NCBI GenBank assembly: GCA_030630005.1
Contig: DAOVNY010000002.1
Location: 1 to 35,237 of the forward strand
Origin: Bacteroidales bacterium
Lineage (GTDB): Bacteria; Bacteroidota; Bacteroidia; Bacteroidales; JAIORY01
Length of the DNA stretch: 35,237 nt
Direction of reading: 5' to 3'
Both the position numbers and the translations under genes were made by a program. The notes below the pieces were generated by a model. That model was not told the origin of the DNA. It saw nothing but the letters and a program-made list of their open reading frames with translations, and did no database searches. Each line of letters begins with the position of its first letter. Positions within the stretch are counted from its first letter, which is position 1. Shown here piece by piece: positions 7,789 to 27,798 of this stretch.

Positions 7789-8550
7789 ATGAATAATGAC
7801 ATTTTTCTTGAAATAAATGAAGCAAGAAAGGGTAACAAAAAAGTTGCTCTTTGTACAATCATCGAAACAAAAGGTTCGACACCTCGTAAAGCAGGTTCCA
7901 AAATGCTTGTTTATGAAGCTAAAAGTATCTCAGGAACTGTTGGCGGTGGTAATATTGAATTGAAAATTATTGAAAAAGCCATTGAGGTAATTGAAAAAAG
8001 CTCAAGCGGCAAATTTGTTTTTGACCTTGGTAATGACCTCGACATGCAATGTGGCGGATATGTGGAAGTATTTATTGAGTCACTAAATCAAAAAAATGAC
8101 TTGATAATTTTTGGTGCCGGTCATGTTGGAAAAGCAGTTGCCCGTTTTGCTTCTCAGCTGGGATTTGAAATTACATTTGTTGATAACAGAAAAAATATTA
8201 TTTCTGATGTTGATATTCAAAATAATAAATTCATTAATAAAGAATATTTTGATGCATTTGAAGATATTGATTTTACTGATAAATCTTTTATAATTGTTAC
8301 AACTCCTAATCACGAATTCGATCAGGAAGTAACAGCAATCTGCATAAAAAAGCCACATGCATATCTCGGAATGATCGGTAGCAAAAGAAAAGTAGCAACA
8401 ACAAAAAACAATCTAATTGAAAAAGGATTTTCAGAGAAAGAAATTGAAAAGGTTGATATGCCCATCGGAATAAAATTTAATGCACAAACTCCTGATGAAA
8501 TAGCAATCAGCATAGTTGCAAAACTTATTGATGTACGAAACTCGCTTTGA
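7789..8550 (+). CDS. xdhC: XdhC/CoxI-family molybdenum hydroxylase maturation protein
   Basis: 253 aa. N-terminal VALCTIIETKGSTPRKAGSKMLV (XdhC_CoxI signature) plus Rossmann-like LIIFGAGHVGKAVARFA (XdhC_C). Confidence 0.85.
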   Translation: MNNDIFLEINEARKGNKKVALCTIIETKGSTPRKAGSKMLVYEAKSISGTVGGGNIELKIIEKAIEVIEKSSSGKFVFDLGNDLDMQCGGYVEVFIESLNQKNDLIIFGAGHVGKAVARFASQLGFEITFVDNRKNIISDVDIQNNKFINKEYFDAFEDIDFTDKSFIIVTTPNHEFDQEVTAICIKKPHAYLGMIGSKRKVATTKNNLIEKGFSEKEIEKVDMPIGIKFNAQTPDEIAISIVAKLIDVRNSL

Positions 8551-8567
8551 AAGGTAATTTGATAGAC

Positions 8568-8654
8568 TGAATGACTAAAATGATTAAATGATTAAATGCG
8601 TAAATAAATGAATGATTGAATGAATGATTGAATGATTGATTGAATGATTGAATC
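8568..8654 (+). repeat. Tandem array of ~11 degenerate 8-nt units (TTGAATGA / TTAAATGA / TAAAATGC)
   Basis: Read directly: tgaatgac taaaatga ttaaatga ttaaatgc gtaaataa atgaatga ttgaatga atga ttgaatga ttga ttgaatga ttgaatc. Confidence 0.85.
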
Positions 8655-8687
8655 AATATTGAGATTTATAACAATAGCTGGAATTTT

Positions 8688-8718
8688 ATCATTTAAGCAT
8701 TTAACCATTTACGCATTT
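8688..8718 (-). repeat. Inverted-orientation copy (4 units) of the same 8-nt repeat family
   Basis: The reverse complement reads aaatgcgt aaatggtt aaatgctt aaatgat. Positions 8707-8718 (atttacgcattt) are the exact reverse complement of 8594-8605 (aaatgcgtaaat). Confidence 0.75.
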
Positions 8719-8757
8719 CCACAAAAATAACAGTAAAAACAAAAACTTAATTAATAA

Positions 8758-10209
8758 ATGAAAAATCAATCAAACATTGCTTTTATCCTTGACGATAAAA
8801 TCGTTACGATTGACTTTTCTGAAGAGAAAAACCTCAAGCCTACAACAAGTGTTCTTGAATATATACGATTGCTACCGACAAAAAAAGGTGTTAAGGAAGG
8901 TTGCGGACAAGGAGATTGTGGTGCTTGTACAATTGTTCTTGGAGAATTAAATAATGAAAATGACATTTCATATAAAGCGGTTAATTCATGCCTCCTTCTT
9001 TTACCGATGATACACGGCAAGCAACTGATAACTATCGAAAATCTTGCTACAAAAAAAGATAACAATATAATTCTTCATCCCGTTCAACAAGCAGTTGTGG
9101 ACACAAATAGCAGTCAGTGTGGTTATTGTACACCGGGGATGGTGATGTCATTATTTGCTCTTTTTAAAAATTATAAAAATCCGTCAAGAGAAATTATTGA
9201 AGATGCCCTTAGCGGGAATCTTTGCCGTTGTACAGGTTATCAACCGCTTATTGAAACTGCACAAAATTCTTGTAAAGGACAAAAAGATACTTTTGAGAAA
9301 AACAAAAATCAAACTATTAATCTCCTAAAAAAGATCAATCAGAAAACAAAAACAATTTCAATTCATACTGAGGATGTTCATTATTTTCGTTCAACGAATC
9401 TTTTTGATACACTACAAATTCGTAAAGAAAATCCTGATGCAATACTTTTAAGTGGTGGCACCGATAGTTCACATAAAAAAATATCCGAAAAGCATAAACC
9501 ATTAAAGATTATTGACATTTCAAGTATTGACGATATTCAATATTTTACTGAAGACAATAATAATTTTTACATTGGCAACGGATTAAATCTTGAGAAACTG
9601 AGAACATTTGCAGCTTCAAAGCTTCCGGTTCTTGAAAATATTTTAAAAGTTTTCGGTTCCCTTCAAATCAGAAACCTTGCAACAATTGGCGGAAACATTG
9701 GCGGGGCTTCCCCTATCGGTGATCTTATTCCGGTATTATTTGCATTGAAAGCTAAAATTAAACTTCAGAGCAATTCAGGAAAAAGAATTACCGAAATTAA
9801 AGATTTCATAAAATCATATCGAAAAACCGATATTAAAACTGATGAAATTATTGAATCTATCATTATCCCAAAATCAGATAAAAATATTATTAAATCATAC
9901 AAAATATCAAAAAGAAAAAATCTTGATATTTCAACACTTTCCGGAGCTTTTAACATTTTACTTGATGATAAATCTTTTGTTAAAGAAATAATTCTTGCTT
10001 TTGGCGGAATGGCAGAAATAACAAAACGAGCAAGCAAAACCGAAGACTTCCTGTTAAAGAAAAAATGGGAAAGAAGAAATATTTATAAAGCTGTTGAAAT
10101 TTTAAAAAATGAATTTGAACCAATCTCGGATGCGAGATCAAATAAAGAGTTCCGAAGAATTGCCACAGGAAATTTATTAATAAAATTCTGGTCAGAAACC
10201 AATGAATAA
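8758..10209 (+). CDS. xdhA: Xanthine dehydrogenase small subunit, [2Fe-2S] plus FAD-binding domains
   Basis: 483 aa. Cys clusters GCGQGDCGACT and QCGYCTPG...CRCTGY, then FAD-domain LLSGGTD and ATIGGNIGGASPIGD, then a CO-dehydrogenase flavoprotein C-terminal-like tail. Confidence 0.9.
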   Translation: MKNQSNIAFILDDKIVTIDFSEEKNLKPTTSVLEYIRLLPTKKGVKEGCGQGDCGACTIVLGELNNENDISYKAVNSCLLLLPMIHGKQLITIENLATKKDNNIILHPVQQAVVDTNSSQCGYCTPGMVMSLFALFKNYKNPSREIIEDALSGNLCRCTGYQPLIETAQNSCKGQKDTFEKNKNQTINLLKKINQKTKTISIHTEDVHYFRSTNLFDTLQIRKENPDAILLSGGTDSSHKKISEKHKPLKIIDISSIDDIQYFTEDNNNFYIGNGLNLEKLRTFAASKLPVLENILKVFGSLQIRNLATIGGNIGGASPIGDLIPVLFALKAKIKLQSNSGKRITEIKDFIKSYRKTDIKTDEIIESIIIPKSDKNIIKSYKISKRKNLDISTLSGAFNILLDDKSFVKEIILAFGGMAEITKRASKTEDFLLKKKWERRNIYKAVEILKNEFEPISDARSNKEFRRIATGNLLIKFWSETNE

Positions 10210-12508
10210 AGTACAAGATAATAACGCAATTAAACACGTTACCGGAGAATCGGTTTATGTGAATGACATCGGTGTAAACGACAGGCTTTTGTACGGAAAG
10301 ATAGTTTACAGTCGTTTGCCTCACGCTATTATCAAATCTTATGACTTGTCGAAAGCACGTTCATTGCAAGGAGTTCATACAGTTTTGTGCAGCAAAGATA
10401 TCACCGGCAAAAATCAGATGGGACCTGTAGTTCAAGACGAACCTTGTCTTGCTGAGAGAGAAGTAAATTTTGCAGGACAAGCAATTTTTCTTATTGCCGC
10501 CGAAAATGAAGAGACCGCAAAAAAAGCTGAAGATCTTATTGAAATAGAATTTGAAGAACTGGAAAGTATTACCGATCTCAAAACTGCCATTCAAAAAGAT
10601 AATCTTCTTTTTGAGCCTCAAAAAATTGAAACAGGCAATGTTAAAAATGCTTTAAAAAACTCAAAACATCATTTATCAGGAAACTTTTTTACAGGAGCAC
10701 AAGAGCATTGGTATCTCGAAACACAGTCGTGTCTTGTCATTCCCGGCGAAGGAAAAGAAATAAAAATATTCAGCTCAACGCAACATCCTTCCGAAACTCA
10801 AAGTATAGTTGCCGGAGTTCTCGGAGTTAATAAAAATGAAGTAGAAGTGGAAGTCAGGCGTCTCGGCGGAGCATTCGGCGGAAAAGAAACCCAGGGAAAC
10901 CATTATGCTGCATGGTCTGCATTGCTTGCAAATGCTACGGATAGTCCGGTAAAAATTCATCTTTCGAGAAATGATGATCAACTGACAACAGGGAAAAGAC
11001 ATCCGTTTTTATCAAATTATATTGTTGGCTTTGATGATAATGGAATTATTAATGCACTTGATGTGGAAATGAATTGTGATGCCGGATCGTCAAATGATCT
11101 TACTTATGCGATTTTGGCAAGAGCTTTATTCCACATAGACAACAGCTATTTTATCCCGAATTTAAAGGTAATCGGAAAAGCTTATAAAACGAACCTGCCT
11201 TCTAACACTGCTTTTCGTGGATTTGGCGGACCACAGGGAATGGCAGTTATAGAAAATATTATCGATAGTATTGCAAGATATCTTCAACTTGATGCAACTG
11301 AGATCAGGTATAGAAATTTCTATCAGATAAATAAAAATAATATCACACATTACGGTCAAAAGATTGAAAACAATCGGCTTTTCAAAATTTATGATGAAAT
11401 AATTGAGTCTTCTAATTATTTTGAAAGACGAAAACAGATCACAGAATTTAATTCAAAAAATGAGTTTTTTAAAAAGGGAATTGCCCTTACTCCCGTTAAA
11501 TTTGGTATCTCTTTTACAACTTCATTTCTGAATCAGGCAGGAGCATTGGTGCATATTTATAAAGATGGCACAGTTCAAGTTAATCACGGCGGAATTGAAA
11601 TGGGTCAGGGATTGAATACCAAAATTTTAGGAATTGCTTCAGATGAATTTGGTATCAATTCCGATGACATTAAAGTTACGTCAACTAATACCTCAAAAGT
11701 GCCGAACACTTCAGCAACAGCAGCATCTTCGGGTAGCGACCTTAATGGGATGGCTGTAAAAAATGCTATTGATAAATTAAAAAAGCGACTTGTTGAAATT
11801 GCATATAAAAGCATTCAGAAAAAAAGTAAAGAAAATAAAATAAGCAAAAAGGACATTATTTTTAAAAATGATTATGTTTTTGATAAAAACTTTAATGATA
11901 TAAAAATTTCCTTTAAGGAATTGATAAACACCTCCTATCTTAATCAGATAAGCCTAAGTGCAACAGGATTTTACAGCACTCCGGGGATTCATTTCGACAA
12001 GAAAAAAGCTAAAGGAAAACCTTTTTATTATTTTGCTTTCGGGATGTCGGTTTCAGAAGTTCAAATTGACACGCTCACGGGAGCACATAAAATTTTAAGA
12101 ACAGATATTTTGCATGATGCCGGAAATCCATTAAACGAAGAAATTGACATTGGACAGATAGAAGGAGGATTTATTCAGGGAGTTGGATGGTGCACCACCG
12201 AAGAGATAAAATGGGATAAAAACGGAAAACTTCTGACTTTTTCACCCGATACCTATAAAATTCCTCTAATTACTGATATCCCAAAAGATTTCAGAGTAAA
12301 ACTATTAAAAGACGCACCAAACATAAATGTAATTAAAAAAAGTAAGGCAGTCGGGGAACCTCCGTTTATGCACTGTTTTTCGGTTTGGCTTGCAATAAAA
12401 GATGCTATTTCTTCAGTTGGAGATCATAAAATTGAACCCGAACTTTCAATTCCGGCTACTAACGAAAAAATTGTGATGGCAGTTGAAAAGGTTAAGGAGG
12501 ATTTATGA
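10202..12508 (+). CDS. xdhB: Xanthine dehydrogenase molybdopterin-binding large subunit
   Basis: 768 aa. GGAFGGKETQ, AFRGFGGPQG and KAVGEPPF carry the Glu/Arg/Glu positions characteristic of xanthine-type hydroxylases. Overlaps xdhA by 8 nt (ATGAATAA). Confidence 0.9.
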   Translation: MNKVQDNNAIKHVTGESVYVNDIGVNDRLLYGKIVYSRLPHAIIKSYDLSKARSLQGVHTVLCSKDITGKNQMGPVVQDEPCLAEREVNFAGQAIFLIAAENEETAKKAEDLIEIEFEELESITDLKTAIQKDNLLFEPQKIETGNVKNALKNSKHHLSGNFFTGAQEHWYLETQSCLVIPGEGKEIKIFSSTQHPSETQSIVAGVLGVNKNEVEVEVRRLGGAFGGKETQGNHYAAWSALLANATDSPVKIHLSRNDDQLTTGKRHPFLSNYIVGFDDNGIINALDVEMNCDAGSSNDLTYAILARALFHIDNSYFIPNLKVIGKAYKTNLPSNTAFRGFGGPQGMAVIENIIDSIARYLQLDATEIRYRNFYQINKNNITHYGQKIENNRLFKIYDEIIESSNYFERRKQITEFNSKNEFFKKGIALTPVKFGISFTTSFLNQAGALVHIYKDGTVQVNHGGIEMGQGLNTKILGIASDEFGINSDDIKVTSTNTSKVPNTSATAASSGSDLNGMAVKNAIDKLKKRLVEIAYKSIQKKSKENKISKKDIIFKNDYVFDKNFNDIKISFKELINTSYLNQISLSATGFYSTPGIHFDKKKAKGKPFYYFAFGMSVSEVQIDTLTGAHKILRTDILHDAGNPLNEEIDIGQIEGGFIQGVGWCTTEEIKWDKNGKLLTFSPDTYKIPLITDIPKDFRVKLLKDAPNINVIKKSKAVGEPPFMHCFSVWLAIKDAISSVGDHKIEPELSIPATNEKIVMAVEKVKEDL

Positions 12509-12569
12509 TTTATGATTTTAGATTTTGAATTTATAACTACTCAGCCAATATAAAATGTTAAAAATAAAT

Positions 12570-12597
12570 ATTTGCCACAGATTCACAGATTTAAAAT
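12570..12597. repeat. Copy B of the ~28-nt motif ATTTGCCACAGATTCACAGATTTAAAAT
   Basis: atttgccacagattcacagatttaaaat ends 14 nt upstream of the NTPase ATG. It matches 5742-5770. Confidence 0.6.
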
Positions 12598-12610
12598 AAA
12601 TTAATTTTAA

Positions 12611-13147
12611 ATGTCAAACAATCAATTATTTATAATCACCGGAGAAAAGGGACGGGGAAAAACCAATCTGTTAATTGAGCTTATCAAAATTCTTCAAAAT
12701 AAAAATATTAGTCTTTCGGGATTTTATGCAAAAGGATTTTGGAGAAATAATAAACGCTCTGCATTTGATCTGGTAAACATTAAAACAGGAAAGAGTATTC
12801 CGCTTTGTAAATCTCAGAAAACTGAAAGATGGGAAAAATATTTTAGTTTTTATTTTAATTCTGAGGCTTTGAAAGTAGGAAATCAAATTTTGAATCCTCA
12901 AAACATAAACACTTCCGACCTTGTAATAATTGATGAAATCGGCAAACTTGATATCAATGGAGAAATCTGGCACGACGCTGTTTCAAAACTTATCTCTGAA
13001 ACAAATATTCCTATGCTGTGGGTAGTTAGGAAAACTTTTGTTGAGGAAATTATTAATTATTGGGAAATGACAGATGTTACAATTTTTGAAGTCGGGAAAG
13101 ATGATGCAAAAACTATCTCTGGAAAGATTATCAGTTTAAATAAATAG
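12611..13147 (+). CDS. Small P-loop NTPase (THEP1/NTPase_1- or DUF2478-like)
   Basis: 178 aa. Walker A ITGEKGRGKTNLL and Walker B LVIIDEIGKLD (the hhhhDEIGkhE pattern of THEP1-type NTPases). Confidence 0.65.
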   Translation: MSNNQLFIITGEKGRGKTNLLIELIKILQNKNISLSGFYAKGFWRNNKRSAFDLVNIKTGKSIPLCKSQKTERWEKYFSFYFNSEALKVGNQILNPQNINTSDLVIIDEIGKLDINGEIWHDAVSKLISETNIPMLWVVRKTFVEEIINYWEMTDVTIFEVGKDDAKTISGKIISLNK

Positions 13148-13176
13148 TACACTGATTGTATAGTACACTGATTGTT
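13145..13176 (+). repeat. Tandem duplication of a 16-mer, tagtacactgattgt(a/t), starting at the NTPase stop codon
   Basis: 13145-13160 and 13161-13176 are identical at 15 of 16 positions. 13239-13248 (cagtgtacta) is the reverse complement of the first 10 nt and abuts the mocA stop codon. Confidence 0.8.
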
Positions 13177-13248: not shown

Positions 13249-13869
13249 TTAAAAATCAGTGCACCATTTATTCAGTTCCATATACTCTTTTTCAGAATTA
13301 ATATTAACAAGAATTCTTTCATTATCAACTTCAACAATTTTCTTTTCAAATCCTTTCAGGAAATCTCTAAAATTCAAATCATTTTTTTCTTCGGAGATAA
13401 TATTTTTAATAATCTTTTCAGAAAGTAAAATCGGATGCCCGCCTTTGTTTTTGAATACCGGAACAACAAAATTTGATTCAGAAATTTCACAAAACAAACT
13501 ATTGAGAACATTCAAATTTACAAATGGATTATCAACATTATGAATAAATACAGGATGATAATTATTCAAATTTTTCAATCCTAATTTTATTGAATAAAAA
13601 CGTTCCCACTCAAGATGTTGATTGATTACAACTTTAATCTCATCAGATAGTTTAATATTTTTTTGATCTAAAACAGAGACTCCTTCCTTATTCAAAACAA
13701 CAAGAATTTCCTTGCATCCAAAGGCTTTGTATTTATTAATAATTTCTTCAAGAAAAGTAACCTTATCACTAAATTTAAGCGCAAATTTCGGCATTCCCAT
13801 CCTACTCGAATATCCGGCAGCAAGAATAACAACTGAACAAGATTTAATATTTTTCGATCTTTCGTGCAT
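13249..13869 (-). CDS. mocA: MobA-like NTP transferase, likely molybdenum cofactor cytidylyltransferase
   Basis: 206 aa. N-terminal VVILAAGYSSRMGMPKFAL is the MocA/MobA nucleotide-binding motif. It sits divergent to ygfK, as mocA (ygfJ) does in E. coli. Confidence 0.8.
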   Translation of the reverse strand: MHERSKNIKSCSVVILAAGYSSRMGMPKFALKFSDKVTFLEEIINKYKAFGCKEILVVLNKEGVSVLDQKNIKLSDEIKVVINQHLEWERFYSIKLGLKNLNNYHPVFIHNVDNPFVNLNVLNSLFCEISESNFVVPVFKNKGGHPILLSEKIIKNIISEEKNDLNFRDFLKGFEKKIVEVDNERILVNINSEKEYMELNKWCTDF

Positions 13870-13945
13870 AGATTACAAAGATAGCACCAATTATGGAAAG
13901 ACAGTAATGCTTGATTTTTTATACTTTTGTAAAAACAATATAAAT

Positions 13946-16900
13946 ATGTCAGATAAATTCTCAATTATACCTCTAAGACAATTATTGCAAATTATTCTCA
14001 GTCAAATAGAAATACATAATAGTTTTTTTGGCATTCAGGAAGAATTGTTTTTCAAACCTAACATTAATGATTCTTTCCGTTTAAATCTTTTCGGACAAAG
14101 TTTGGAAAGCCCGATTGGTGTGGCAGCAGGACCACACAGTCAACTTACTCAAAACATTGTTGCAGCATGGCTTTGCGGAGCCCGTTTTATTGAATTAAAA
14201 ACCATTCAAACACTTGACGAACTGGAAATATCCAAACCTTGTATCGACATGCAGGATGAGGGATATAATTGCGAATGGTCACAGGAATTGAAAATTGAAC
14301 AATCATTCGATCAATATCTTAATGCATGGATCATCATTCACATTTTAAAAGACAAATTAAAAATTGGCAATAAAAATGACGCCGGAGTAATATTTAATAT
14401 GAGCGTAGGATATGATTATGCAGGCATATTAAATAAAAATGTGCAATGGTTTTTTGATAAAATGAATGACTCATCAACAGAGTTAAAACAGAAAATTGAA
14501 GAAATAAAAGACATTTATCCAAACATTGTTAATCTTGATATCAATCCGCAAATTTCAAATAATGTTACTCTTCCGACTATGCACGGCTGTCCGCCGGAAG
14601 AGATTGAACAAATTGGCAATTATCTGATTACAGAAAAAAAATTACATACAGCTATCAAATTAAATCCTACTTTATTAGGAAAAGAAGAACTCCAAAAAAT
14701 TTTACTCAATTCCGGTTTTGAAACAATAGTCCCTGATATTGTTTTTGAGCATGATTTAAAATATAAAGACGCTGTAGGAATCATCAAACGACTTAAACAA
14801 AAAGCCGAAGAAAACAATCTTTATTTCAGTTTAAAACTTACAAACACTCTTGAGAGCCTGAATTATAAAGACATTTTCCCTTCCGGTGAAAAAATGATGT
14901 ATGCCAGTGGCAGAATACTTCATCCAATTTCAATTAATCTCGCAAAAAAGCTACAAAATGAATTTTCAGGGAAACTAAATATTTCATTTTCCGGTGGTGC
15001 CGATGCTTTTAATATTTCAAATATTATTTCATCAGGATTATTTCCAGTTACGGTTTGCACTGATATTTTGAAACCCGGCGGTTATGGAAAACTTAATCAA
15101 TATATTGAAAAACTCCGTTCAGAATTTTCTATAAATAATAATCTTTATGGAAATAATAATCTAAAGAATTTAAATCAATATGCAAACAATGTGTTGGCAG
15201 ACAAGAGGTATAAAAAAATATTGCTCAGGGATAAAAGTATTAAAACAAACAAGCAACTAAATTCTTTCGATTGTATTTCAGCACCATGTGTTGACACCTG
15301 CCCTACAAATCAAAATATTCCGGATTATATGTACCACACAGCAAACGGAGATTTCGAAAAAGCTTTTGATATTATCATGCAAACTAATCCTTTCCCAAAT
15401 ACAACCGGAATGGTTTGCGATCATCTTTGTCAGACAAAATGTACACGAATAAATTATGACAACCCGCTTCAGATAAGAGAAATAAAAAGATTTATTGCTG
15501 AAAATGCAACTAATTCGAAAACAGCTCAGACCAACAATATTAAATCTGAAAAAGCATTTAAAGTTGGAATAATCGGAGCAGGACCATCAGGATTATCTTG
15601 TGCATGGTTTTTGAAAGCAGCAAGATTTGAAGTTGATGTTTATGAAGCAAAACAAAAGCCCGGAGGCATGATTTCAGGAGCAATTCCTTCTTTCAGAATA
15701 ACAGACGAAGCAATTGATATTGACATTGAGAGGATTGAAAAAGCAGGAGTAAAAATTCATTTCGGAGTAAAAATCAATAAAGAAAATTTTGACCGGTTAA
15801 GAAAAAAATGCGACTTTTTATATATTGCAGCCGGAGCTCAAAAAGTTAAAGAAGTATTTATTGAAGGACAAAATGCTGAAGGAGTTTTGAATCCTCTGGA
15901 GTTTTTATTTCAGGTAAAAAAACAAAAATCAATAAAAATCGGACAAAATATTTTAATACTCGGAGGTGGAAACACAGCGATAGACACAGCTCGTACAGCA
16001 AAACGCTTAGTTAGTAAAAACGGTAATGTTCAAATAATTTACCGCCGAACATTAAAACAAATGCCCGCCGATTACAATGAAATAATTTCAGTTTTAGATG
16101 AAGGAGTAAAAATTATGGAATTGGTTTCTCCGGTAAAAATCAACTCAAAGAATGGTAAAATAATTTCTCTTACTTGTGTAAAAATGAAACTTGGTGATAA
16201 AGATGAAAGTGGAAGGGCAACGCCTGTAATTATACCAAATTCAGAATTTGAAATTGAAGCTGATACAATAATTCCGGCTTTTGGACAGGATATTGATATT
16301 GATTTCATCGACCACGAACTTCTCACACCAAAAGCTGAAAGCTACGAAACTCAAATATCAAATATATTTATAGGTGGTGATGCTTTGCGAGGTGGATCAA
16401 CTGTAATTAATGCTGTTGCAGATGGAAGAAAAACAGCAAATGAAATTATTGAGAAAACTGAAATTGATATTCAATATAATAAAATCATCAATAAAAAAGA
16501 CATCTCTATAAAAGAGCTTATGCTAAAGAAAAGTAAAATTATAATATCTGAATCTTCACATAATTCTCCTGAAATTGATTCCATTAGTTTTATTAATACC
16601 TCAAAATCATTAACAAAAGAACAGGCAGTAAAAGAAGCATCAAGATGTTTACTTTGTGATGAAGTTTGTAATATTTGCACAACGGTTTGCCCGAATCTTG
16701 CACTTTTTGCTTTTGAGACTGAAACTGTAAAATATCATCTTCAAAAAATAAAAGCTAATAATAAAAACATCGAAATTGTAGAAGATGAGTTATTTGAAGT
16801 AAATCAGAAACATCAAATTCTTCACCTTGCCGACTGGTGTAATGAGTGTGGAAATTGCACAACTTTTTGCCCGACATCAGGTTCACCTTATAAAGAAAAA

Positions 16901-20064: not shown

Positions 20065-22625
20065 TGATAACATTTATCTTAAACGGAATAAAAAAATCCT
20101 ACTCAGGCAATCCTGATAAAACACTTCTGGATTATCTGAGAAACGATCAGAAAATCACTTCTGTAAAAGACGGATGTTCCGGTGAGGGAGTTTGCGGTGC
20201 TTGTACGGTTGAGATAAATGGAAAAGCAAAATTATCCTGTGTTACAAAAATGAGAAAACTTGAAGGTGCGGAAATTCTTACCCCCGAAGGTTTTCCTGAA
20301 TATGTGAAAGACACCATAGCAAAAGCCTTTGTTAACAAGGGAGCTGTGCAGTGTGGTTTTTGCACACCGGGATTTATCAGCCGCACAAAAGTACTTTTAC
20401 AAAACAATCCAAATCCATCAATTGAAGAAATTCAAAAAGCTATTAAACCACATCTTTGTCGATGTACCGGATATAAAAAAATTGAAGACGCAATAGAATT
20501 TGCAGCTGAAGCATTGCATAAAAATAAAAAACTCGAAATCACCAAAACATCAGGAAAGGTTGGTGTTTCACATCCAAAATATCAGGCTTATCAAACTGCA
20601 ATTGGCAAACGCAATTTTGTTGATGATATCAGCTTTGACGGAATGTTGCATTCAGCCTTAAAATTTAGCAATTATCCAAAAGCAAAAGTCCTGAAGATAA
20701 ATACAGAAAAAGCAAAAAAACTTTCCGGCGTACATAAAGTATTTACAGCAAAAGATATTCCAGGAGAAAAGAAAGTGGGTTTAATTTTGCAAGATTGGTC
20801 GGTGATGATAGCTGAGGGAAATATCACTCATTATATTGGCGATGTGATTGCCGGAGTTGTAGCCGACACAATTGAAATTGCCCGTAAAGCCGTTGAATTA
20901 ATTGAAGTTGTATATGAAGTTTTAAAGCCGGAAACCGATGTTTTCAAGGCTATTGACGGAGAACGAGTTCATCCCGAAAGACCAAATAATTTTAATACCA
21001 GCCAGTTTACTATTGGTGATGTTGATGAAATTTTTGCAAAATCTAAATATATCTCATCCGGAAAATTCGAGACACAGCGAGTAGAGCATGGATTTCTGGA
21101 AAAAGAATCTGCCATTGCACGCCCTGATGGAAAAGGAGGAATAGAGCTTTTTAGTCAAAGTCAGGGAGTTTATGAAGACCGCCGGCAGGTGGCAATGATA
21201 CTCGGTTTGCCCGAAGAAAAAGTGAGAGTAACACTGGTACCAAATGGCGGAGGATTTGGTGGAAAAGAGGATTTAAGTATTCAGGGTCATGTTTCTTTGT
21301 TTGCTTTTTTACTAAACAAACCGGTTAAATTAACGCTTTCGCGAAGCGAATCTATCAAGCTTCATCCCAAACGACATCCTGTTTTTATGGATATGAAAGT
21401 TGCTGCTGATGAAAACGGAAAACTGACTGCATTGAAATTACGTGCAGTTGGCGATACAGGAGCTTATGCTTCTGTCGGCGATAAAGTTCTTGAGCGTGTT
21501 GCAGGACATGCTGCCGGAGGATATTTTATTCCGGCTATTGATATTGAAGCAAAAACTGTTTATACAAATAATATTCCTTGCGGTGCTATGCGTGGGTTTG
21601 GAGCCAATCAGGTTACTTATGCGCTGGAAGTTTGCCTTGATGATATTTGCAAGAAAGCCGGATTCGACCGTTGGCAATTTCGTTATGATAATGCACTTGT
21701 GGATGGATTGCGGACTTCAACCGGACAAAAAGTTAATGGTGTTGGAATACGAGCTTGTCTCGAAGCTGTTAAAGAAGATTTCAATAATGCAAAGTATGCA
21801 GGAATAGCTTGTGGTATCAAAAATTCAGGTGTTGGAAACGGGATGATTGATGAGTCAAAAGTGAAAATTAAAATTGTTTCTGAAAATAAAATAGTTCTTT
21901 CACACGGCTGGACTGAAATGGGACAAGGTGTTCATAATATGGCTCTGCAAGTTCTTTGTCAGGAAACCGGAATCAATCCTGAAATTATTGAAGTTATTGT
22001 TGATACCGAAGACCAGATAAAAACAGGAATGACCACTTCATCGCGGGCGACAGCTTTGGTGGGTCTTGCAATAATTAATGCTGCAAAATCTTTAAAAGAA
22101 GATTTAAAAACTAAATTTTTGAATCAGTTAAGCGGAAAAACTTATCAGGGTGAGTTTGTTTGCGACTGGACAAGCAAACCAGGAGCTGATGTCAAAGACC
22201 CTGTAATTCATTATTCTTATGGTTATGCCGCACAAGTTTGTATTTTAGATGATAATGGAAATATTGAAAAAATTATTGCAGCTCATGATGCCGGAAAAAT
22301 TATGAATCCTATGCTTTTTGAAGGACAAATTCAGGGAGCTGTTCACATGGGATTAGGCTACGCCCTGACTGAAGACCTGCCAATGAAAGACGGATATTTG
22401 CTAAGTGATAAATATCGTGATTTGGGAATTTTACGAGCATACCAAACTCCGGAAATAATTGTAAAAGGCGTGGAAGTAAAAGACCCTGTTGGTCCTTATG
22501 GAGCAAAAGGTATTGGCGAAATCGGACTGGTTCCCACAGCAGGAGCTATTGCAAACGCCCTATGTAAATTCGATGGAAAACAGAGACTTAAACTTCCGAT
22601 GAAGAGGAAGAAAAAAAGAAAATAA
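20064..22625 (+). CDS. [2Fe-2S]-fused molybdopterin hydroxylase of the XdhD / selenium-dependent molybdenum hydroxylase type
   Basis: 853 aa. N-terminal GCSGEGVCGACT, QCGFCTPG and CRCTGY. Moco domain has GGGFGGKEDLS, AMRGFGANQV and KGIGEIGLVP. No FAD domain. The start codon shares 1 nt with the upstream stop (TAATG). Confidence 0.85.
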   Translation: MITFILNGIKKSYSGNPDKTLLDYLRNDQKITSVKDGCSGEGVCGACTVEINGKAKLSCVTKMRKLEGAEILTPEGFPEYVKDTIAKAFVNKGAVQCGFCTPGFISRTKVLLQNNPNPSIEEIQKAIKPHLCRCTGYKKIEDAIEFAAEALHKNKKLEITKTSGKVGVSHPKYQAYQTAIGKRNFVDDISFDGMLHSALKFSNYPKAKVLKINTEKAKKLSGVHKVFTAKDIPGEKKVGLILQDWSVMIAEGNITHYIGDVIAGVVADTIEIARKAVELIEVVYEVLKPETDVFKAIDGERVHPERPNNFNTSQFTIGDVDEIFAKSKYISSGKFETQRVEHGFLEKESAIARPDGKGGIELFSQSQGVYEDRRQVAMILGLPEEKVRVTLVPNGGGFGGKEDLSIQGHVSLFAFLLNKPVKLTLSRSESIKLHPKRHPVFMDMKVAADENGKLTALKLRAVGDTGAYASVGDKVLERVAGHAAGGYFIPAIDIEAKTVYTNNIPCGAMRGFGANQVTYALEVCLDDICKKAGFDRWQFRYDNALVDGLRTSTGQKVNGVGIRACLEAVKEDFNNAKYAGIACGIKNSGVGNGMIDESKVKIKIVSENKIVLSHGWTEMGQGVHNMALQVLCQETGINPEIIEVIVDTEDQIKTGMTTSSRATALVGLAIINAAKSLKEDLKTKFLNQLSGKTYQGEFVCDWTSKPGADVKDPVIHYSYGYAAQVCILDDNGNIEKIIAAHDAGKIMNPMLFEGQIQGAVHMGLGYALTEDLPMKDGYLLSDKYRDLGILRAYQTPEIIVKGVEVKDPVGPYGAKGIGEIGLVPTAGAIANALCKFDGKQRLKLPMKRKKKRK

Positions 22626-22627
22626 TT

Positions 22628-23908
22628 ATGTCAATACTCTTAAAAAACGCAACATACATAAATTGGGAAAATCTCCAATTCTCAAAAACCAATATTCTTG
22701 TTGAAGAAGGAGAAAATGGGAGTGTGAAATTTCTTGATAGTCTTGAAGGTATAAATCCCAATAGTAAAATAATTGACTGCACAGGAAAATTTGTAACAAA
22801 ATCCTTTGCTGTCGGGCATCATCATGTTTACTCAGCACTTTCGAGAGGAATGCCGACTCCAAAGAAAAGCCCAAACAATTTTTATGAAATATTAAAAAAT
22901 ATCTGGTGGACACTTGACAAAACTCTGGATAAAGACATGATAGAAGCAAGCGCATTAGCTACCGCAATAGCTTGTGCAAAAGCCGGATCTACCTTTGTAA
23001 TTGATCATCACGCATCACCAAATTTTATTACCGGCTCTCTTGATATAATTGCCAAAGCTTTTGAAAAAGTCGGGATAAATCATTTGCTGTGTTATGAAAT
23101 TACAGACAGAGATGGAATTGAAAAGGCAGAATTGGGTCTTTCCGAAACAGAAAATTATTTAAAGCAAAATCAGGGTCTTATTGGCTTACATGCTTCTTTT
23201 ACGGTTGGTGAAAATACTTTAAGAAAAGCATCCGACCTTATGAATAAATACAATTCCGGAATTCACATTCATGTTGCGGAAGACAATTATGACCAAGAAC
23301 ATTGTATAAAAAATTACAACAAACGGGTTGTTGAAAGATTAAACGATTATGGTATTCTTAATTCATCAAAAACAATTCTTGGACACTGTTTGAAAATCAA
23401 TAAAAATGAACGGAATTTGATTAAAAACTCAAAAGCATTTATTGTTCAAAATACAGAAAGCAATCTTAATAATAATGTCGGTTATTTTAATTCGGAAGGA
23501 TTAGGAAAAAATATTATGCTCGGAACTGACGGTATGCACAGCGACATGATACGAAGTGCTCAAGCTGCATATTTCGTAGGACAGGGATTTGATAAAATTG
23601 ATTTCCAGTCTTCTTATGAGAGATTCAGAAATGTTCATAATTATCTAAAAACAAATAACTTTAAGGGTGATGGCAAAAACAATCTTGTCGTTTTTGATTA
23701 TGATAGTCCAACTGAAATGAATGAAAATAATTTTCTTGGTCATTTTATTTTCGGATTAAATTCAAAATATATTCAACATGTTATTTCAAATGGAAAATTA
23801 ATTGTGAAAGACGGAAAAATTAAAACTGTTAATGAAAAAGAAATTTTAGATTTTTCAAAAGAAATAGCAAATAGGCTTTGGGATAGAATGCAATCGAATA
23901 AACCTTAA
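22628..23908 (+). CDS. ssnA: SsnA-family amidohydrolase
   Basis: 426 aa. GHHHVYSALSRGM, NIWWTLDKTLD, FVIDHHASPNFITGSLD, HIHVAEDNYD and GTDGMHSDM run collinear with E. coli SsnA as I remember it. It starts 2 nt after the upstream stop. Confidence 0.9.
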   Translation: MSILLKNATYINWENLQFSKTNILVEEGENGSVKFLDSLEGINPNSKIIDCTGKFVTKSFAVGHHHVYSALSRGMPTPKKSPNNFYEILKNIWWTLDKTLDKDMIEASALATAIACAKAGSTFVIDHHASPNFITGSLDIIAKAFEKVGINHLLCYEITDRDGIEKAELGLSETENYLKQNQGLIGLHASFTVGENTLRKASDLMNKYNSGIHIHVAEDNYDQEHCIKNYNKRVVERLNDYGILNSSKTILGHCLKINKNERNLIKNSKAFIVQNTESNLNNNVGYFNSEGLGKNIMLGTDGMHSDMIRSAQAAYFVGQGFDKIDFQSSYERFRNVHNYLKTNNFKGDGKNNLVVFDYDSPTEMNENNFLGHFIFGLNSKYIQHVISNGKLIVKDGKIKTVNEKEILDFSKEIANRLWDRMQSNKP

Positions 23909-23930
23909 ATCCGCAGGCGGATTCATTTTG
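23908..23930 (+). terminator. Small stem-loop plus T-run immediately after the ssnA stop
   Basis: aatccg (23908-23913), loop cagg, cggatt (23918-23923), then cattttg. The stem is only 6 bp. Confidence 0.45.
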
Positions 23931-23931
23931 A

Positions 23932-23958
23932 CACTAATTTCACTAATTTGCACTAATA
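23932..23958 (+). repeat. Three tandem ~10-nt units, cactaattt(g)
   Basis: cactaattt cactaatttg cactaata, read directly. Flanked by 23907-23914 (aaatccgc) and its exact reverse complement at 23968-23975 (gcggattt). Confidence 0.75.
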
Positions 23959-24014
23959 AAAATCCTTGCGGATTTATGTATAAATAATATTTCAATTAAT
24001 CAGAGATATTTCAC

Positions 24015-25385
24015 ATGAACATTTTAATCAAAAACGGTACAATTATAACATCAGAAAAAACATTTAAATCTGATATCCTTATCGGGAATGGGAAAATACT
24101 CAAGATCAGTAATCATCTCAAATCAAACAATACAATTGATAAAGAAATTAATGCTGAAGGAAATTATATTTTTCCCGGTGGTATTGATCCTCACGTTCAT
24201 ATGCATTTACCAACTCCTGCGGGATTTTCTTCAGATGATTTTTTGTCGGGTAGCAAAGCTGCTCTATTTGGTGGAACAACAACAATGATTGACTTTGTTA
24301 CTCCCCGAAAAGATCAATCCCTGATTGATGCCTTAAATGAAAGAAAAAAGGAAGCATTGAATTCAATTATTGATTATTCTTTTCATGTAAGTCCCGTGGA
24401 ATGGACAAAAACAAGCGAGCAAGAAATCAAATCCATAATTCAGGATGAAGGTATAAATTCTTTTAAAATATACATGGCTTATAAAAATACTATTGGTCTT
24501 GATGATGAAGATATTTTGAAAGTTATGAAAGTTGTTGGGAAAGCAGGAGGAATAGTTACTTCACATTGTGAATTGGGTGATGATATTGAAAAACTTAGGA
24601 ACTCCTTTGCGGAAAATGGAAATCTTAGTCCTGAATTTCATCCAAAATCACGTTCTCCTGAAATGGAATTTAAAGCTGTAAAAAAAGCAATTGAGCTTGC
24701 AAAAATTGCTGACTGTCCGCTTTACATTGTTCATGTTTCTGCAAAAGAATCATTAAAGTATATCAAAAAAGCACAACAAGAAGGACAAAAAGTTTTCGCC
24801 GAAACTTGTCCTCATTATTTATTATTAAATGATTTGAAATACAAAGGTGGGTTTCATAAAACTGCTCCTTTTGTTCTTAGTCCACCTTTGCGAAAGCAAG
24901 AAGACAATGAAGCACTTTGGGAGGCGATAATTGATGGAACAATTCAAACTATCGGAACTGATCATTGTCCATTTATGCTTAAACAAAAAGAGTTTGGAAT
25001 TAATGATTTTCGAAAAATTCCAAATGGTGCTGGAGGTATTGAACACAGGCTTGCACTAATTTACACTTTTGGTGTTCTTGAAAACAAAATCATATTAAAT
25101 CGTTTTGTTGACATAATTTCTACACAAGCAGCAAAAATATTTGGACTTTATCCTGCTAAAGGTGAAATCGCTGAAAACTCAGATGCAGATTTGATAATTT
25201 GGGATACTGAAAAAGAAAATATTATTTCAGCAAAAACTCATCATCAAAATTGTGATACTAATATTTTTGAAAATATTAAAACAAAAGGTGCTGTAAAACA
25301 TCTCATTAAAAATGGTGAAATTGTAATTCTGGATGGTGAATTATTGTCTGAAAAAATTAAAGGGAATTTTCTGAAAAGAAGCTAA
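24015..25385 (+). CDS. hyuA: Dihydropyrimidinase / D-hydantoinase-family cyclic amidohydrolase
   Basis: 456 aa. PGGIDPHVHM metal-binding motif, FKIYMAYK (carboxylated-Lys region), VTSHCE, IVHVS, GTDHCPF. Confidence 0.85.
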   Translation: MNILIKNGTIITSEKTFKSDILIGNGKILKISNHLKSNNTIDKEINAEGNYIFPGGIDPHVHMHLPTPAGFSSDDFLSGSKAALFGGTTTMIDFVTPRKDQSLIDALNERKKEALNSIIDYSFHVSPVEWTKTSEQEIKSIIQDEGINSFKIYMAYKNTIGLDDEDILKVMKVVGKAGGIVTSHCELGDDIEKLRNSFAENGNLSPEFHPKSRSPEMEFKAVKKAIELAKIADCPLYIVHVSAKESLKYIKKAQQEGQKVFAETCPHYLLLNDLKYKGGFHKTAPFVLSPPLRKQEDNEALWEAIIDGTIQTIGTDHCPFMLKQKEFGINDFRKIPNGAGGIEHRLALIYTFGVLENKIILNRFVDIISTQAAKIFGLYPAKGEIAENSDADLIIWDTEKENIISAKTHHQNCDTNIFENIKTKGAVKHLIKNGEIVILDGELLSEKIKGNFLKRS

Positions 25386-25402
25386 ATGAACAAGATCCCA
25401 TT

Positions 25403-26590
25403 TCAAACCCCTGCCCTTTTCAAATTCCTATCTAAAATATTTCTTAAAATCTTAGAAGGATATTTGAATTTATTTGTAAACATCATAGCAGCAATTATGT
25501 ATGGTTTGAATCCGGCTTCGTGATAAGTTTTAATTCTGTATTTTTCAAAAACATCAGCATTTACCTCGCCTTCTTTGCACGAAACACCCGAAATATCAGC
25601 AGGAAGACAGTGCATATAAAGAGCATTTTTGTTTTTTGTAAGATTCATTTTTTCTTCATCATACTCCCAATCTTTGTGTTTTGCATTTTCGGCAAGGCAT
25701 GATTTTTCAAGATTATCAAGACCGGTTTTATCATTTGCTTTTAATAAATCCGTTCGTTTTTGCATAATATGAAATGGTGCCCAACTTTTGGGATAAACAA
25801 TGTCTGCATCCTTGACTGCCTCCTTCATTGAATGACTGATATTAAATGAGCCTCTACTATTTTTTGCGTTGTTACGGGCAATATCAACAATTTCAGGAAT
25901 AAGGTCATATCCTTTTGGGTAAGCTAATTCGATGTTTATTCCAAAACGTGACATCAGAGCAATAATTCCCTGAGGAACAGACAATGGTTTTCCATAACTT
26001 GGCGAGTATGCCCAGCTTATAACGATCTTTTTATCTTTCAGATTTTCGAGTGAGCCAAAATATTTTTTCAAATGTAAAAGATCAGCCATTGATTGGGTGG
26101 GATGATCCATGTCACATTGAAGATTTACAATTCCCGGGCGGGATGGCAATACATTATTTTCATAACCCTCGTCAAGAGCATCAGCCACTTCACGCATATA
26201 TTTATTTCCTTCGCCAAGAAACATATCATCACGAATTCCAATAAAATCAGTTAAAAATGAAATCATATTTGCAGTCTCTCTGACTGTTTCGCCATGAGCA
26301 ATCTGAGATTTTTCCTCATCCATATCCTGAACTTCCAAACCTAATAAATTGCTTGCCGAAGCATAAGAAAATCTTGTCCTTGTTGATTTATCTCTAAAGA
26401 TAGAAACTGCCAACCCGGAATCAAAAACTTTTGAAGATATGTTTTGCTCTCTCAGTTGTTTCAGAATATCAGCCACTTCCAGAATCATCAGTAAATCGCT
26501 TTCACTTTTTTCCCAGCTTAAGAGAAAATCTTTTTTATACAGATTTGACTTTATCTGTTGTAACTTTTCAATTTTATTTTTGAGATCCAT
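25403..26590 (-). CDS. ygeW: YgeW-type (knotted) carbamoyltransferase
   Basis: 395 aa. SIFRDKSTRTRFSYASA, KSQIAHGETVRETANMISF, NLQCDMDHPTQSMADL, WAYSPSYGKPLSVPQGII and YMHCLPADISGVSCKEGEV match E. coli YgeW, as I recall it, almost block for block. Confidence 0.92.
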   Translation of the reverse strand: MDLKNKIEKLQQIKSNLYKKDFLLSWEKSESDLLMILEVADILKQLREQNISSKVFDSGLAVSIFRDKSTRTRFSYASASNLLGLEVQDMDEEKSQIAHGETVRETANMISFLTDFIGIRDDMFLGEGNKYMREVADALDEGYENNVLPSRPGIVNLQCDMDHPTQSMADLLHLKKYFGSLENLKDKKIVISWAYSPSYGKPLSVPQGIIALMSRFGINIELAYPKGYDLIPEIVDIARNNAKNSRGSFNISHSMKEAVKDADIVYPKSWAPFHIMQKRTDLLKANDKTGLDNLEKSCLAENAKHKDWEYDEEKMNLTKNKNALYMHCLPADISGVSCKEGEVNADVFEKYRIKTYHEAGFKPYIIAAMMFTNKFKYPSKILRNILDRNLKRAGV

Positions 26591-26601
26591 AATTTTTCGA
26601 T

Positions 26602-27798
26602 TTAAAATTCATCCATTTCATACGCAAAAGCAGCATAAAAAGCAGATGCAACAACCAAATCATCAATAAGAACTTTTTCGTTTGGTGCATGTGCCAGCAC
26701 TTCATTTCCCGGACCAAAACCAATTGTTGGAATACCATAAATTCCATTAATTGTTACTCCGTTTGTCGAGAAAGTCCATTTATCAATTTTTGCATTTCTT
26801 TGATAAAGATTTTGATATGCCTTAACTCCGGTTTGAACAATTTTATGATCTTCGGGAATTTTCCATGTAGGATAATATTTTTCCATTCCGTACTCCAGCC
26901 CTGTGTATGCTTTTTCCGAATAGTTAAGAACTTTAACTTCGGCTTTAATATCCTTAATCAATTCCTCAATTTCCTTAACAGCAGATTCTTTCGTTTCTCC
27001 CCACGTCAATCTACGATCAAGATGAATTCTGGCAAAATCCGAGACAGCACATAAAGAAGGACTTCCTGAAATAATTTCGGAAATAGTAATACTTCCCTTT
27101 CCAAGGAATTCATTATATTGAAGATGTTCATTTAATTTTTCGATTTCAAGAGCCACACGAGAAGCCATATAAATAGCATTTTCGCCTCGCTCGGGTGCAG
27201 AGCCATGTGAAGAAACTCCATAAAAACTTACCTGCATTTCCATTCTACCACGATGTCCGCGATAAATATTCAAATTTGTTGGTTCTGTACTAATTACAAA
27301 ATCAGGCTTAATTCCATCTTCTTCAATAATATATTTCCAGCATAGCCCGTCACAATCTTCTTCCATCACGCTACCTACAAAATATATTGTCATATCTTTA
27401 TCAAATCCGAGTTCTTTCAAAATTTTACCCGATGTTACAAATGATGCAGGTCCGCCTTTCTGATCAACAGAGCCTCTTCCATGAACAAATCCATTTTTAA
27501 TTTCACCTCCCAAGGGATTAAAATCCCAATTCTTAATATTTCCAATATCAACAGTATCCATGTGACCGTCAATTGCAAGGTTTTTTTTACCATTTCCTAT
27601 TCTGCCAATCACATTTCCAAGCCCGTCAATCTTAACTTCATCAAATCCAGCATCTTCCATCTGTTGCTTCAATTCCATTTGGACAAGTTTTTCATCCTTA
27701 CTTAAAGATTTTATTTTAATGAGTTTTGACAGATTTTCAGCCGTATAATCTCTATACTTCTCCGATAACTCATTTATCTTACTAATAACACTTTTCAT
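26602..27798 (-). CDS. ygeY: YgeY-type M20 family metallohydrolase
   Basis: 398 aa. GNIKNWDFNP, HGRGSVDQKGG, EEDCDGLCWKYIIEE, STEPT, HGSAPERGENAI, DRRLTWGET, KWTFSTNG and GFGPG...AHAPNE are collinear with E. coli YgeY as I remember it. Confidence 0.92.
   Translation of the reverse strand: MKSVISKINELSEKYRDYTAENLSKLIKIKSLSKDEKLVQMELKQQMEDAGFDEVKIDGLGNVIGRIGNGKKNLAIDGHMDTVDIGNIKNWDFNPLGGEIKNGFVHGRGSVDQKGGPASFVTSGKILKELGFDKDMTIYFVGSVMEEDCDGLCWKYIIEEDGIKPDFVISTEPTNLNIYRGHRGRMEMQVSFYGVSSHGSAPERGENAIYMASRVALEIEKLNEHLQYNEFLGKGSITISEIISGSPSLCAVSDFARIHLDRRLTWGETKESAVKEIEELIKDIKAEVKVLNYSEKAYTGLEYGMEKYYPTWKIPEDHKIVQTGVKAYQNLYQRNAKIDKWTFSTNGVTINGIYGIPTIGFGPGNEVLAHAPNEKVLIDDLVVASAFYAAFAYEMDEF

Follow-up and report, generated by a model that had tools for sequence, protein, structure and literature searches.

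The stretch of DNA analysed here, called the window in the following, comprises 35,237 nt of contig DAOVNY010000002.1 of a Bacteroidales bacterium and is part of a 58.8-kb metagenome scaffold (ENA ERZ23498622 scaffold_225). Thirteen consecutive genes at positions 7789 to 27798 form a putative locus for the anaerobic degradation of purines and uric acid. What is new is the middle of its operon, where two pyridoxal phosphate (PLP) enzymes, PLP1 and PLP2, stand in place of YgeX, the last enzyme of the known pathway. An earlier reading made without database searches (the sequence-only reading) had proposed these thirteen genes, and all thirteen open reading frames are found where it had placed them. 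The gene set that it claimed is also borne out, namely the E. coli ygeW-xdhD-type set plus a separate XdhAB which contains flavin adenine dinucleotide (FAD). The start of YgfK was corrected to the ATG at 13946 from the upstream TTG at 13712. In the following list, scores against family models are given together with the cut-off of the model.

7789-8550, plus strand: XdhC-family insertion or maturation factor for the molybdenum cofactor (Moco); TIGR02964 162.2, cut-off 161.6 (marginal pass)
8758-10209, plus strand: XdhA, [2Fe-2S] and FAD small subunit of a Rhodobacter/Pseudomonas-type xanthine dehydrogenase; TIGR02963 488.7, cut-off 467
10202-12508, plus strand: XdhB, molybdopterin subunit of xanthine dehydrogenase; TIGR02965 1023.4, cut-off 849.5
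12611-13147, plus strand: THEP1-like NTPase; PF03266 84.8, PF10649 (DUF2478) 25.9 (weak)
13249-13869, minus strand: MocA-like NTP transferase; TIGR03310 112.6, below the cut-off of 186.45; PF12804
13870-13945, no strand: putative divergent mocA/ygfK control region with two Bacteroidota-type -7 motifs, TAnnTTTG
13946-17215, plus strand: YgfK, predicted NADPH:2,8-dioxopurine oxidoreductase (DOPOR); TIGR03315 950.1, cut-off 835.3
17289-18758, plus strand: PLP1, CysK/CBS-like fold-type-II PLP enzyme with N- and C-terminal extensions; PF00291
18829-20064, plus strand: PLP2, threonine-synthase-like PLP enzyme with an N-terminal Zn-ribbon; PF00291; TIGR00260 196.7, cut-off 167.1
20064-22625, plus strand: [2Fe-2S]-Moco hydroxylase, predicted XdhAC/DOPDH type; TIGR03311 (Se_dep_XDH, selenium-dependent xanthine dehydrogenase) 887.6, cut-off 830.45
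22628-23908, plus strand: SsnA-like amidohydrolase; NF005540 392.1, cut-off 444; TIGR03314 340.7, cut-off 455.5
24015-25385, plus strand: HyuA-type D-hydantoinase; TIGR02033 531.3, cut-off 393.25; 36% identical to E. coli HyuA
25403-26590, minus strand: YgeW knotted carbamoyltransferase; NF005538 680, cut-off 453; TIGR03316 636.2, cut-off 500
26602-27798, minus strand: YgeY M20 ureido-hydrolase; NF009555 537.7, cut-off 321; 53% identical to E. coli YgeY

Eight of the thirteen proteins pass the NCBIfam equivalog cut-off for a named pathway family. The family models had been proposed as a check on the gene names; YgfK, YgeW and YgeY pass it, and SsnA and MocA remain below the trusted cut-offs. 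The SsnA-like protein, MocA and the NTPase are nevertheless clear full-length best matches of their families. For the SsnA-like protein the next-best family scores just 121.9, the identity to E. coli SsnA is 32% over the full length, and the slot of its gene after the hydroxylase gene is conserved among related loci. The MocA-like protein is probably a molybdenum cofactor cytidylyltransferase, and its gene is divergent from ygfK in most related loci. YgfK is 35% identical to E. coli YgfK over 1051 aa and has a single CxxCxxCxxxC motif, at residue 965; YgeW is 66% identical to its E. coli counterpart. XdhC consists of the Pfam domains XdhC_CoxI and XdhC_C, scores 220.9 (below the cut-off) with NF045664 (XdhC_rel_AOR) and shares 33% identity with residues 2-252 of E. 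coli YqeB, which make up the N-terminal half of that protein. The Pfam domains of XdhA are Fer2_2, FAD_binding_5 and CO_deh_flav_C. The gene of the NTPase (84.8 with NF010248, cut-off 156) separates xdhB from mocA in the window and otherwise just in its two closest relatives, L002 and L003 (L-numbers label the related loci compared with the window locus); in more distant relatives mocA directly follows xdhB. We considered the NTPase as an analogue of YqeC and dropped this candidate, as it has no similarity to E. coli YqeC and occurs in just these two relatives.

The locus encodes two molybdenum hydroxylases, and the Glu/Arg/Glu positions which the sequence-only reading had claimed for both large subunits are indeed present in both. 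XdhB has the triad GGKE229, FR339GFG and GE719PP and keeps KFGISFT (bovine F1009/T1010) and TAAS (A1078/A1079); judged from these residues its pocket is of the canonical xanthine type. Equivalents of Glu, Arg, Glu, Phe1009 and Ala1078 are thus kept as in the XdhABC proteins of Rhodobacter capsulatus and Pseudomonas, and XdhA, XdhB and XdhC all reach equivalog cut-offs, XdhC marginally. Compared with these systems, the gene order in the window is xdhC-xdhA-xdhB, and the enzyme belongs to a putative anaerobe and is joined to a reductive urate pathway instead of uricase.

The second hydroxylase has 853 aa, no FAD domain and the triad GGKE402, MR510GFG and GE819IG. Its pocket residues were read from an alignment to rat xanthine dehydrogenase (XDH), whose residues match the bovine numbering in that stretch. 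Opposite bovine A1078 the enzyme has T658, and at F1009 its loop is shorter and contains no Phe; the pocket differences described for DOPDH are F1009V and A1078T/S (Liu et al. 2025, 10.1101/2025.04.24.650524). Because the protein passes TIGR03311, has Thr at A1078 and lacks Phe at F1009, it is by sequence an enzyme of the clostridial XdhAC/DOPDH type with a predicted DOPDH activity. The sequence-only reading had combined XdhAB with an FAD-less, XdhD-like enzyme next to YgfK. XdhAB does contain FAD and the second enzyme is FAD-less, but it is not XdhD-like, and two PLP genes intervene between it and ygfK. Its identity to E. coli XdhD is 25%. XdhD (TIGR03313, 956 aa) has GSKQ and AYQGYG, that is Gln for Glu and Arg, whereas the window enzyme keeps Glu/Arg/Glu; XdhD also pairs with the FAD subunit YgfM, and the window has no YgfM. 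E606, the specificity residue of XdhD according to Li et al. (10.1101/2025.05.19.654654), proved unusable as a marker, as it sits in an insertion that the window enzyme does not have. Among solved structures, Desulfovibrio aldehyde oxidoreductases and the Se-dependent nicotinate dehydrogenase come closest to this enzyme, and a likeness to the Desulfovibrio aldehyde-oxidoreductase set (NF045664, NF045665) is seen in the maturation genes. XdhC could serve either hydroxylase.

Between ygfK and the hydroxylase gene the locus departs from the known clusters, in a part on which the sequence-only reading did not dwell. We found no YgeX orthologue in the window: neither PLP enzyme reaches the model NF006058 (65.8 for PLP2, cut-off 276), and E. 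coli YgeX aligns just locally, with 27% identity over 127 aa. Both PLP1 and PLP2 are fold-type-II PLP enzymes like YgeX, ThrC and CysK. PLP1 has 489 aa with a Lys in PTGAHKVG. The best Foldseek matches of its AlphaFold2 model (predicted local distance difference test 93.9) are CysK, CBS and beta-cyanoalanine synthase, with a TM score of about 0.84 on the target and 22-25% identity. About 170 residues extend beyond the CysK/CBS core, and the score with the cysK model is 96 (cut-off 351). No other protein of the core-type clusters is as conserved as PLP1, with 73-95% identity where YgfK is 46-86% identical; sequences that match PLP1 at more than 80% identity number in the thousands, and their annotations are all generic. 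PLP2 has 411 aa, a Lys in PTFSFKDR and CxxC...CxxC motifs, and aligns to ThrC along its length. At the positions of S155 and R160 of T. thermophilus ThrC, which presumably bind the substrate phosphate, PLP2 has Ala and Thr, where all four solved ThrC proteins have Ser and Arg. Among about 70 PLP2 homologues tabulated from related loci the R160 position is never Arg, and S155 is likewise missing in every one.

Relatives of the locus were sampled by a scan with YgfK, one genome per GTDB species; 162 were found and the best 80 examined. In this YgfK-centred sample ygfK is followed by PLP1 in 42 of 65 informative loci, and PLP1 by PLP2 in 30 of those 42. A true diaminopropionate ammonia-lyase (NF006058 379-417, cut-off 276) fills the slot between ygfK and xdhAC in L046, L071 and L078. 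YgeX also adjoins a PLP1 homologue in L078, L138 and L148, and the stretch examined there contains no PLP2. YgeX in the same slot in three relatives, together with PLP1 beside YgeX where PLP2 is missing, suggests that PLP2 is probably a functional substitute for YgeX. We also collected a PLP1-centred metagenome sample, scanned with a second, less divergent PLP1 alignment, which comprises 60 loci flanked by 5 kb or more. PLP2 or other pathway genes are present in 48 of these 60 loci (YgeW 15, HyuA 14, YgeY 10, YgfK 9, SsnA 9, carbamate kinase 7). A frequent order is YgeW-carbamate kinase-PLP2-PLP1-HyuA, with no XDH-family tblastn match in the stretch examined. PLP1 may thus provide an extra catabolic step, frequent and not obligatory, on a beta-substituted alanine.

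A bolder proposal, which we put forward only tentatively, is that PLP1 and PLP2 form an undescribed terminal module in which PLP2 replaces YgeX and PLP1 carries out a step that the E. coli and Clostridium pathway is without. Candidate reactions for PLP1 would be a beta-elimination or beta-replacement on 3-ureidoalanine or on one diaminopropionate stereoisomer. Contigs with this module bear the labels Bacteroidota, Ignavibacteria/Chlorobiota and Planctomycetota; homologues of PLP1 are in addition named Cloacimonadota and KSB1.

Among the PLP1 loci that have no pathway genes nearby, we looked for clues around PLP1 in L100, L101, L104 and L106 and found unrelated neighbours (S58 peptidase, radical SAM proteins, subtilase). 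In L101 (8724-11467) and L100 (8724-11476), where no purine genes are found, a homologue with 66-67% identity directly follows a Peptidase_S58 gene (DmpA-like aminopeptidase). Such a neighbour might point to a broader amino-acid substrate of PLP1-family enzymes. A homologue of 48% identity and 562-571 aa is annotated in Aduncisulcus paluster, an anaerobic Carpediemonas-like eukaryote (GKT33050.1, GKT33049.1); it could stem from lateral transfer or contamination.

The core of the locus, mocA on the minus strand followed by ygfK-PLP1-PLP2-xdhAC-ssnA, recurs in dozens of loci. In L026, L027, L033 and L038 the genes prmC-udk-GT4 (GT4 standing for a glycosyltransferase gene) precede xdhC-xdhA-xdhB-mocA(-)-ygfK-PLP1 and onward, as far as the stretches reach. 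L028, whose contig begins at udk, has udk-GT4 and all the genes that follow, down to ygeW(-)-ygeY(-). Five Bacteroidales metagenome-assembled genomes (MAGs) repeat the full 15-gene order with its flank. Far from being rare, the locus is common among environmental Bacteroidota and keeps a stable position. The sequence-only reading had raised the case of a locus common and already characterised in this phylum; common it is, since 62 of the best 80 YgfK relatives are Bacteroidota, but it is not characterised there. The other labels among these 80 are Ignavibacteria or Chlorobiota (13) and other (5).

We regard Bacteroidota, and within them Bacteroidales, as the supported host from the nearest relatives of the locus and its flanks, from the starts without Shine-Dalgarno motif and from the TAnnTTTG motifs. 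A Bacteroidota host had been proposed by the sequence-only reading, and the closest relatives, Bacteroidales MAGs with 86-96% amino-acid identity, agree with it. Among the best 80 of 162, the two nearest YgfK proteins (86% and 82% identity) are from Bacteroidales MAGs, and in the nearest relative, L002, PLP1 and the hydroxylase are 95% and 96% identical to the window proteins. Downstream of the locus lie dnaA (28894-30333), a low-molecular-weight phosphatase gene and an RsmI-like gene. In another Bacteroidales MAG (L030, DAOWGM010000128.1) a cluster variant whose XdhAB is of a more distant type is directly preceded by dnaA (65% identical); there are therefore at least two arrangements in which dnaA neighbours the purine locus.

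Some related contigs carry unexpected names or contents. L033 (CAWEDU010000009.1, 430.7 kb) is named 'uncultured Thermoplasmatales archaeon', yet its stretch prmC-udk-GT4-xdhC-xdhA-xdhB-mocA-ygfK-PLP1-PLP2 is syntenic with Bacteroidales at 42-81% identity; its bin or label is probably wrong. L087 (JAOKOG010000004.1, GCA_028254385.1), named Desulfosarcina sp., has the core ygfK-PLP1-PLP2-xdhAC-ssnA, with a Y1_Tnp transposase gene inserted between xdhAC and ssnA. Adjoining the core is a protein with a Por_Secre_tail domain of the type IX secretion system, which suggests a mis-binned Bacteroidota contig. In L082 (15402-18757) and L087 (9784-13039) no hyuA, ygeW or ygeY follows ssnA. Instead we find a 206-aa protein without Pfam match and a second Amidohydro_1 protein of about 440 aa, in L082 with an Asp/Glu-racemase-family gene upstream. 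This module may be an alternative means of opening the hydantoin and ureido intermediates.

The junctions for which translational coupling had been proposed are as described. The genes xdhA and xdhB overlap by 8 nt at 10202-10209 (ATGAATAA), the stop codon of PLP2 overlaps the hydroxylase start by 1 nt (TAATG) at 20064, and a 2-nt spacer precedes the ssnA start at 22628. The genome also appears, as claimed, AT-rich and free of Shine-Dalgarno signals: a Shine-Dalgarno-like motif is absent upstream of 14 of the 15 starts inspected, and the GC content of the window is about 31%. Upstream of ssnA the stretch AGAGGAAG lies more than 14 nt from the start. TAnnTTTG occurs 52 times in the window, 10 of these in intergenic DNA (6.5% of the window), and is found directly upstream of mocA, ygfK, ygeY and udk. 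On the minus strand, one copy (CAAAGATA) lies at 13876, with 6 nt between it and the start of mocA, and one at 27851, 52 nt upstream of ygeY; on the plus strand, the copy at 13922 (TACTTTTG) is 16 nt away from the start of ygfK. Judged from the motif, these copies may act as promoters. We infer an operon structure which would comprise four transcription units, that is xdhC-xdhA-xdhB-NTPase, mocA, ygfK-PLP1-PLP2-xdhAC-ssnA-hyuA and ygeY-ygeW. Rfam and tRNA scans of the window found neither riboswitches (Moco, purine) nor tRNAs.

Upstream of the locus a udk-like uridine kinase gene (5833-6486) overlaps the GT4 glycosyltransferase gene (6479-7759) by 8 nt. This pair ends 29 nt ahead of xdhC and is syntenic with the locus in the five MAGs. 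There is no TAnnTTTG motif between GT4 and xdhC, so that xdhC-xdhAB may be co-transcribed with udk-GT4. At the other end, hyuA (plus strand) and ygeW (minus strand) are convergent with 17 nt between their stop codons (25385-25403), which therefore leaves little space for separate terminators. Farther upstream an open reading frame of 748 aa (757-3003) has a PHO4 phosphate-transporter domain, a weak PhoU match (E = 0.00025) and no NCBIfam match.

The pathway of the orthologous genes was reconstituted biochemically in 2025, step by step with orthologues of E. coli, C. sporogenes and C. difficile (Liu et al., 10.1101/2025.04.24.650524; Li et al., 10.1101/2025.05.19.654654), and its function is therefore no longer open. 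Urate is converted to 2,8-dioxopurine by XdhD in E. coli or by XdhAC/DOPDH in C. sporogenes. The NADPH-dependent YgfK (DOPOR) reduces 2,8-dioxopurine, which is opened with SsnA to ureidomethylhydantoin; the product of HyuA is 2,3-diureidopropionate. YgeW, together with the carbamate kinase YqeA which yields ATP, and YgeY remove the ureido groups, and YgeX turns 2,3-diaminopropionate into pyruvate and ammonia. Liu et al. score a cluster when at least four of seven proteins exceed set identities to the C. sporogenes proteins; by family assignment, a measure other than these identities, six of the seven proteins are present in the window.

From orthology and the published pathway, the assignment to anaerobic uric acid and purine catabolism made by the sequence-only reading is essentially right. 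We consider it likely that the locus gives an uncultured member of the Bacteroidales, itself probably an anaerobe, a complete catabolic unit from purines to C3 compounds. The chemistry of the orthologues is taken from the papers; family membership, active-site residues, gene order and its conservation were observed here. We suggest that degradation would proceed in the following steps. XdhAB, probably matured by XdhC, would oxidise hypoxanthine and xanthine to urate. The XdhAC/DOPDH-type hydroxylase, for which we infer a cytosine-dinucleotide cofactor probably made by MocA, would then strip the C6 oxygen of urate to give 2,8-dioxopurine. YgfK would reduce this compound with NADPH, and the SsnA-like amidohydrolase would open the ring to ureidomethylhydantoin. 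HyuA would open the hydantoin to 2,3-diureidopropionate, from which YgeW (phosphorolysis to carbamoyl phosphate) and YgeY (hydrolysis) would produce 2,3-diaminopropionate. Finally, the ThrC-like PLP2 would take over from YgeX and form pyruvate and ammonia, and PLP1 would add a beta-elimination or beta-replacement step on a beta-substituted alanine intermediate.

Among the closest known systems is the cluster of C. sporogenes and C. difficile. It shares with the window an FAD-less [2Fe-2S]-Moco hydroxylase of TIGR03311 with the A1078T and F1009-loss pocket, as well as YgfK, HyuA, YgeW, YgeY and, in the window, an SsnA-like protein, and in C. sporogenes the carbamate kinase gene is also outside the cluster, elsewhere on the chromosome. 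Unlike the clostridial cluster, the window has CysK-like and ThrC-like PLP enzymes between ygfK and xdhAC in place of YgeX, no adjacent yqeB or yqeC, an SsnA-like protein that is divergent and scores under its family cut-off and, instead of the clostridial Se-dependent XDH, an XdhAB of Rhodobacter type together with XdhC; its host is one of the Bacteroidota from an environmental metagenome. With the E. coli region (ygeW-ygeX-ygeY-hyuA-yqeA / mocA-ygfK-ssnA-ygfM-xdhD) the window has in common a MocA orthologue (24% identity) and a separate xanthine dehydrogenase nearby, whereas ygeX, yqeA, the C-terminal half of yqeB, yqeC, ygeV, transporters and guaD are missing.

Several points weigh against this interpretation. 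The experiments on the pathway were all carried out outside Bacteroidota, none on any member of the phylum, and cultured human-gut Bacteroidetes isolates did not consume urate in a 2022 screen. All 80 of the best 80 of 162 YgfK relatives are MAGs. SsnA and MocA score under the curated cut-offs, even the clostridial counterpart of the FAD-less hydroxylase has no known electron donor, and the roles of PLP1 and PLP2 are deduced from gene position and fold. In 12 of the 60 PLP1-centred loci PLP1 has no pathway neighbours and lies in unrelated contexts; since it also occurs alone, its link to the pathway is not obligatory. Finally, carbamate kinase, a urate/xanthine transporter, a regulator, yqeC and selD are absent from the window, and none of these appears in the Pfam labels of the genes called 10 kb further downstream. 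In the literature, Bacteroidota are not listed in the SsnA similarity network of Li et al. (10.1101/2025.05.19.654654), and a preprint on uricolysis by Prevotella copri leaves ygfK, ssnA and xanthine dehydrogenase unmentioned and has the cluster papers in its reference list only. Family-based surveys have probably overlooked the locus, with its SsnA below the family cut-off and YgeX missing.

Molybdenum hydroxylases with labile selenium are reportedly accompanied by YqeB, YqeC and SelD in the genome (Haft & Self 2008; Zhang et al. 2008). It is possible, though we hold it for doubtful, that the pathway runs as proposed with a selenium-free hydroxylase whose ordinary sulfido-Moco is delivered by the XdhC-family protein. 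Neither yqeC nor selD is present in the window, and a search of 83 related loci, in which selD was never a query, turned up no yqeC. The sole YqeB-like sequences are short XdhC proteins which match the N-terminal half of YqeB, and the likeness of the maturation genes to the Desulfovibrio set would fit as well. However, YqeB/C and SelD are present in every cluster-positive strain of the gut-isolate library, and DOPDH from a selD mutant is inactive (Liu et al. 2025, 10.1101/2025.04.24.650524). The accessory genes may moreover sit elsewhere in the genome, and no sequence signature separates Se from S enzymes.

A more distant alternative is that PLP1 and PLP2 are not catabolic at all and mobilise sulfur or selenium, by chemistry of the cysteine or selenocysteine type, to mature the molybdenum centre of the adjacent hydroxylase. 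The cysteine-synthase fold of PLP1, the overlap of the PLP2 stop with the hydroxylase start and the lack of a visible YqeB/C system could be read in this way. Yet PLP2-PLP1 often occur with YgeW, carbamate kinase, YgeY and HyuA where no XDH-family tblastn match is found in the stretch examined (for example L111, L115, L119, L144, L153), and in three loci the PLP slot is taken by the catabolic diaminopropionate lyase. Furthermore, known sulfuration of Moco uses fold-type-I NifS-like enzymes. Thus a role of PLP1 and PLP2 in cofactor maturation is unlikely.

It is harder still to believe that both are the ordinary cysteine synthase and threonine synthase of the host, placed in the locus by chance. 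PLP2 is above the thrC equivalog cut-off, and PLP1 is annotated as cysteine synthase in databases. But their adjacency is kept on contigs labelled Bacteroidota, Ignavibacteria/Chlorobiota and Planctomycetota, homologues of PLP1 also carry Cloacimonadota names, and the genes are translationally coupled within the operon. PLP2 is without the R160 and S155 kept in the four solved ThrC proteins, and PLP1 falls far short of the cysK cut-off (96 against 351) and has its roughly 170 extra residues. Nor do we give much credit to action on another N-heterocycle or to YgfK as a selenate reductase, as the name of TIGR03315 ('putative selenate reductase subunit YgfK') and the use of YgfK as a selenium-cycling marker in environmental surveys would have it, because purified YgfK needs NADPH and 2,8-dioxopurine while selenate is without effect, and because YgfK is here accompanied by the full downstream hydrolase set, a canonical XdhAB and a hydroxylase with a DOPDH-type pocket.

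With the catabolic reading of the locus, three aspects remain new: the pathway extends to environmental Bacteroidota and related phyla, a non-orthologous enzyme probably replaces YgeX, and PLP1 is conserved. The genes of the pathway are widespread in uncultured environmental Bacteroidota and their sister groups. In these lineages, counts of YgfK, which serve as a marker of selenium cycling in sediment metagenomes, more likely reflect purine catabolism. Another way of ending the pathway could come to light with the PLP1/PLP2 pair; if the two enzymes do form a terminal module, the published seven-enzyme pathway would not be the sole route and possibly not the commonest one in sediments.

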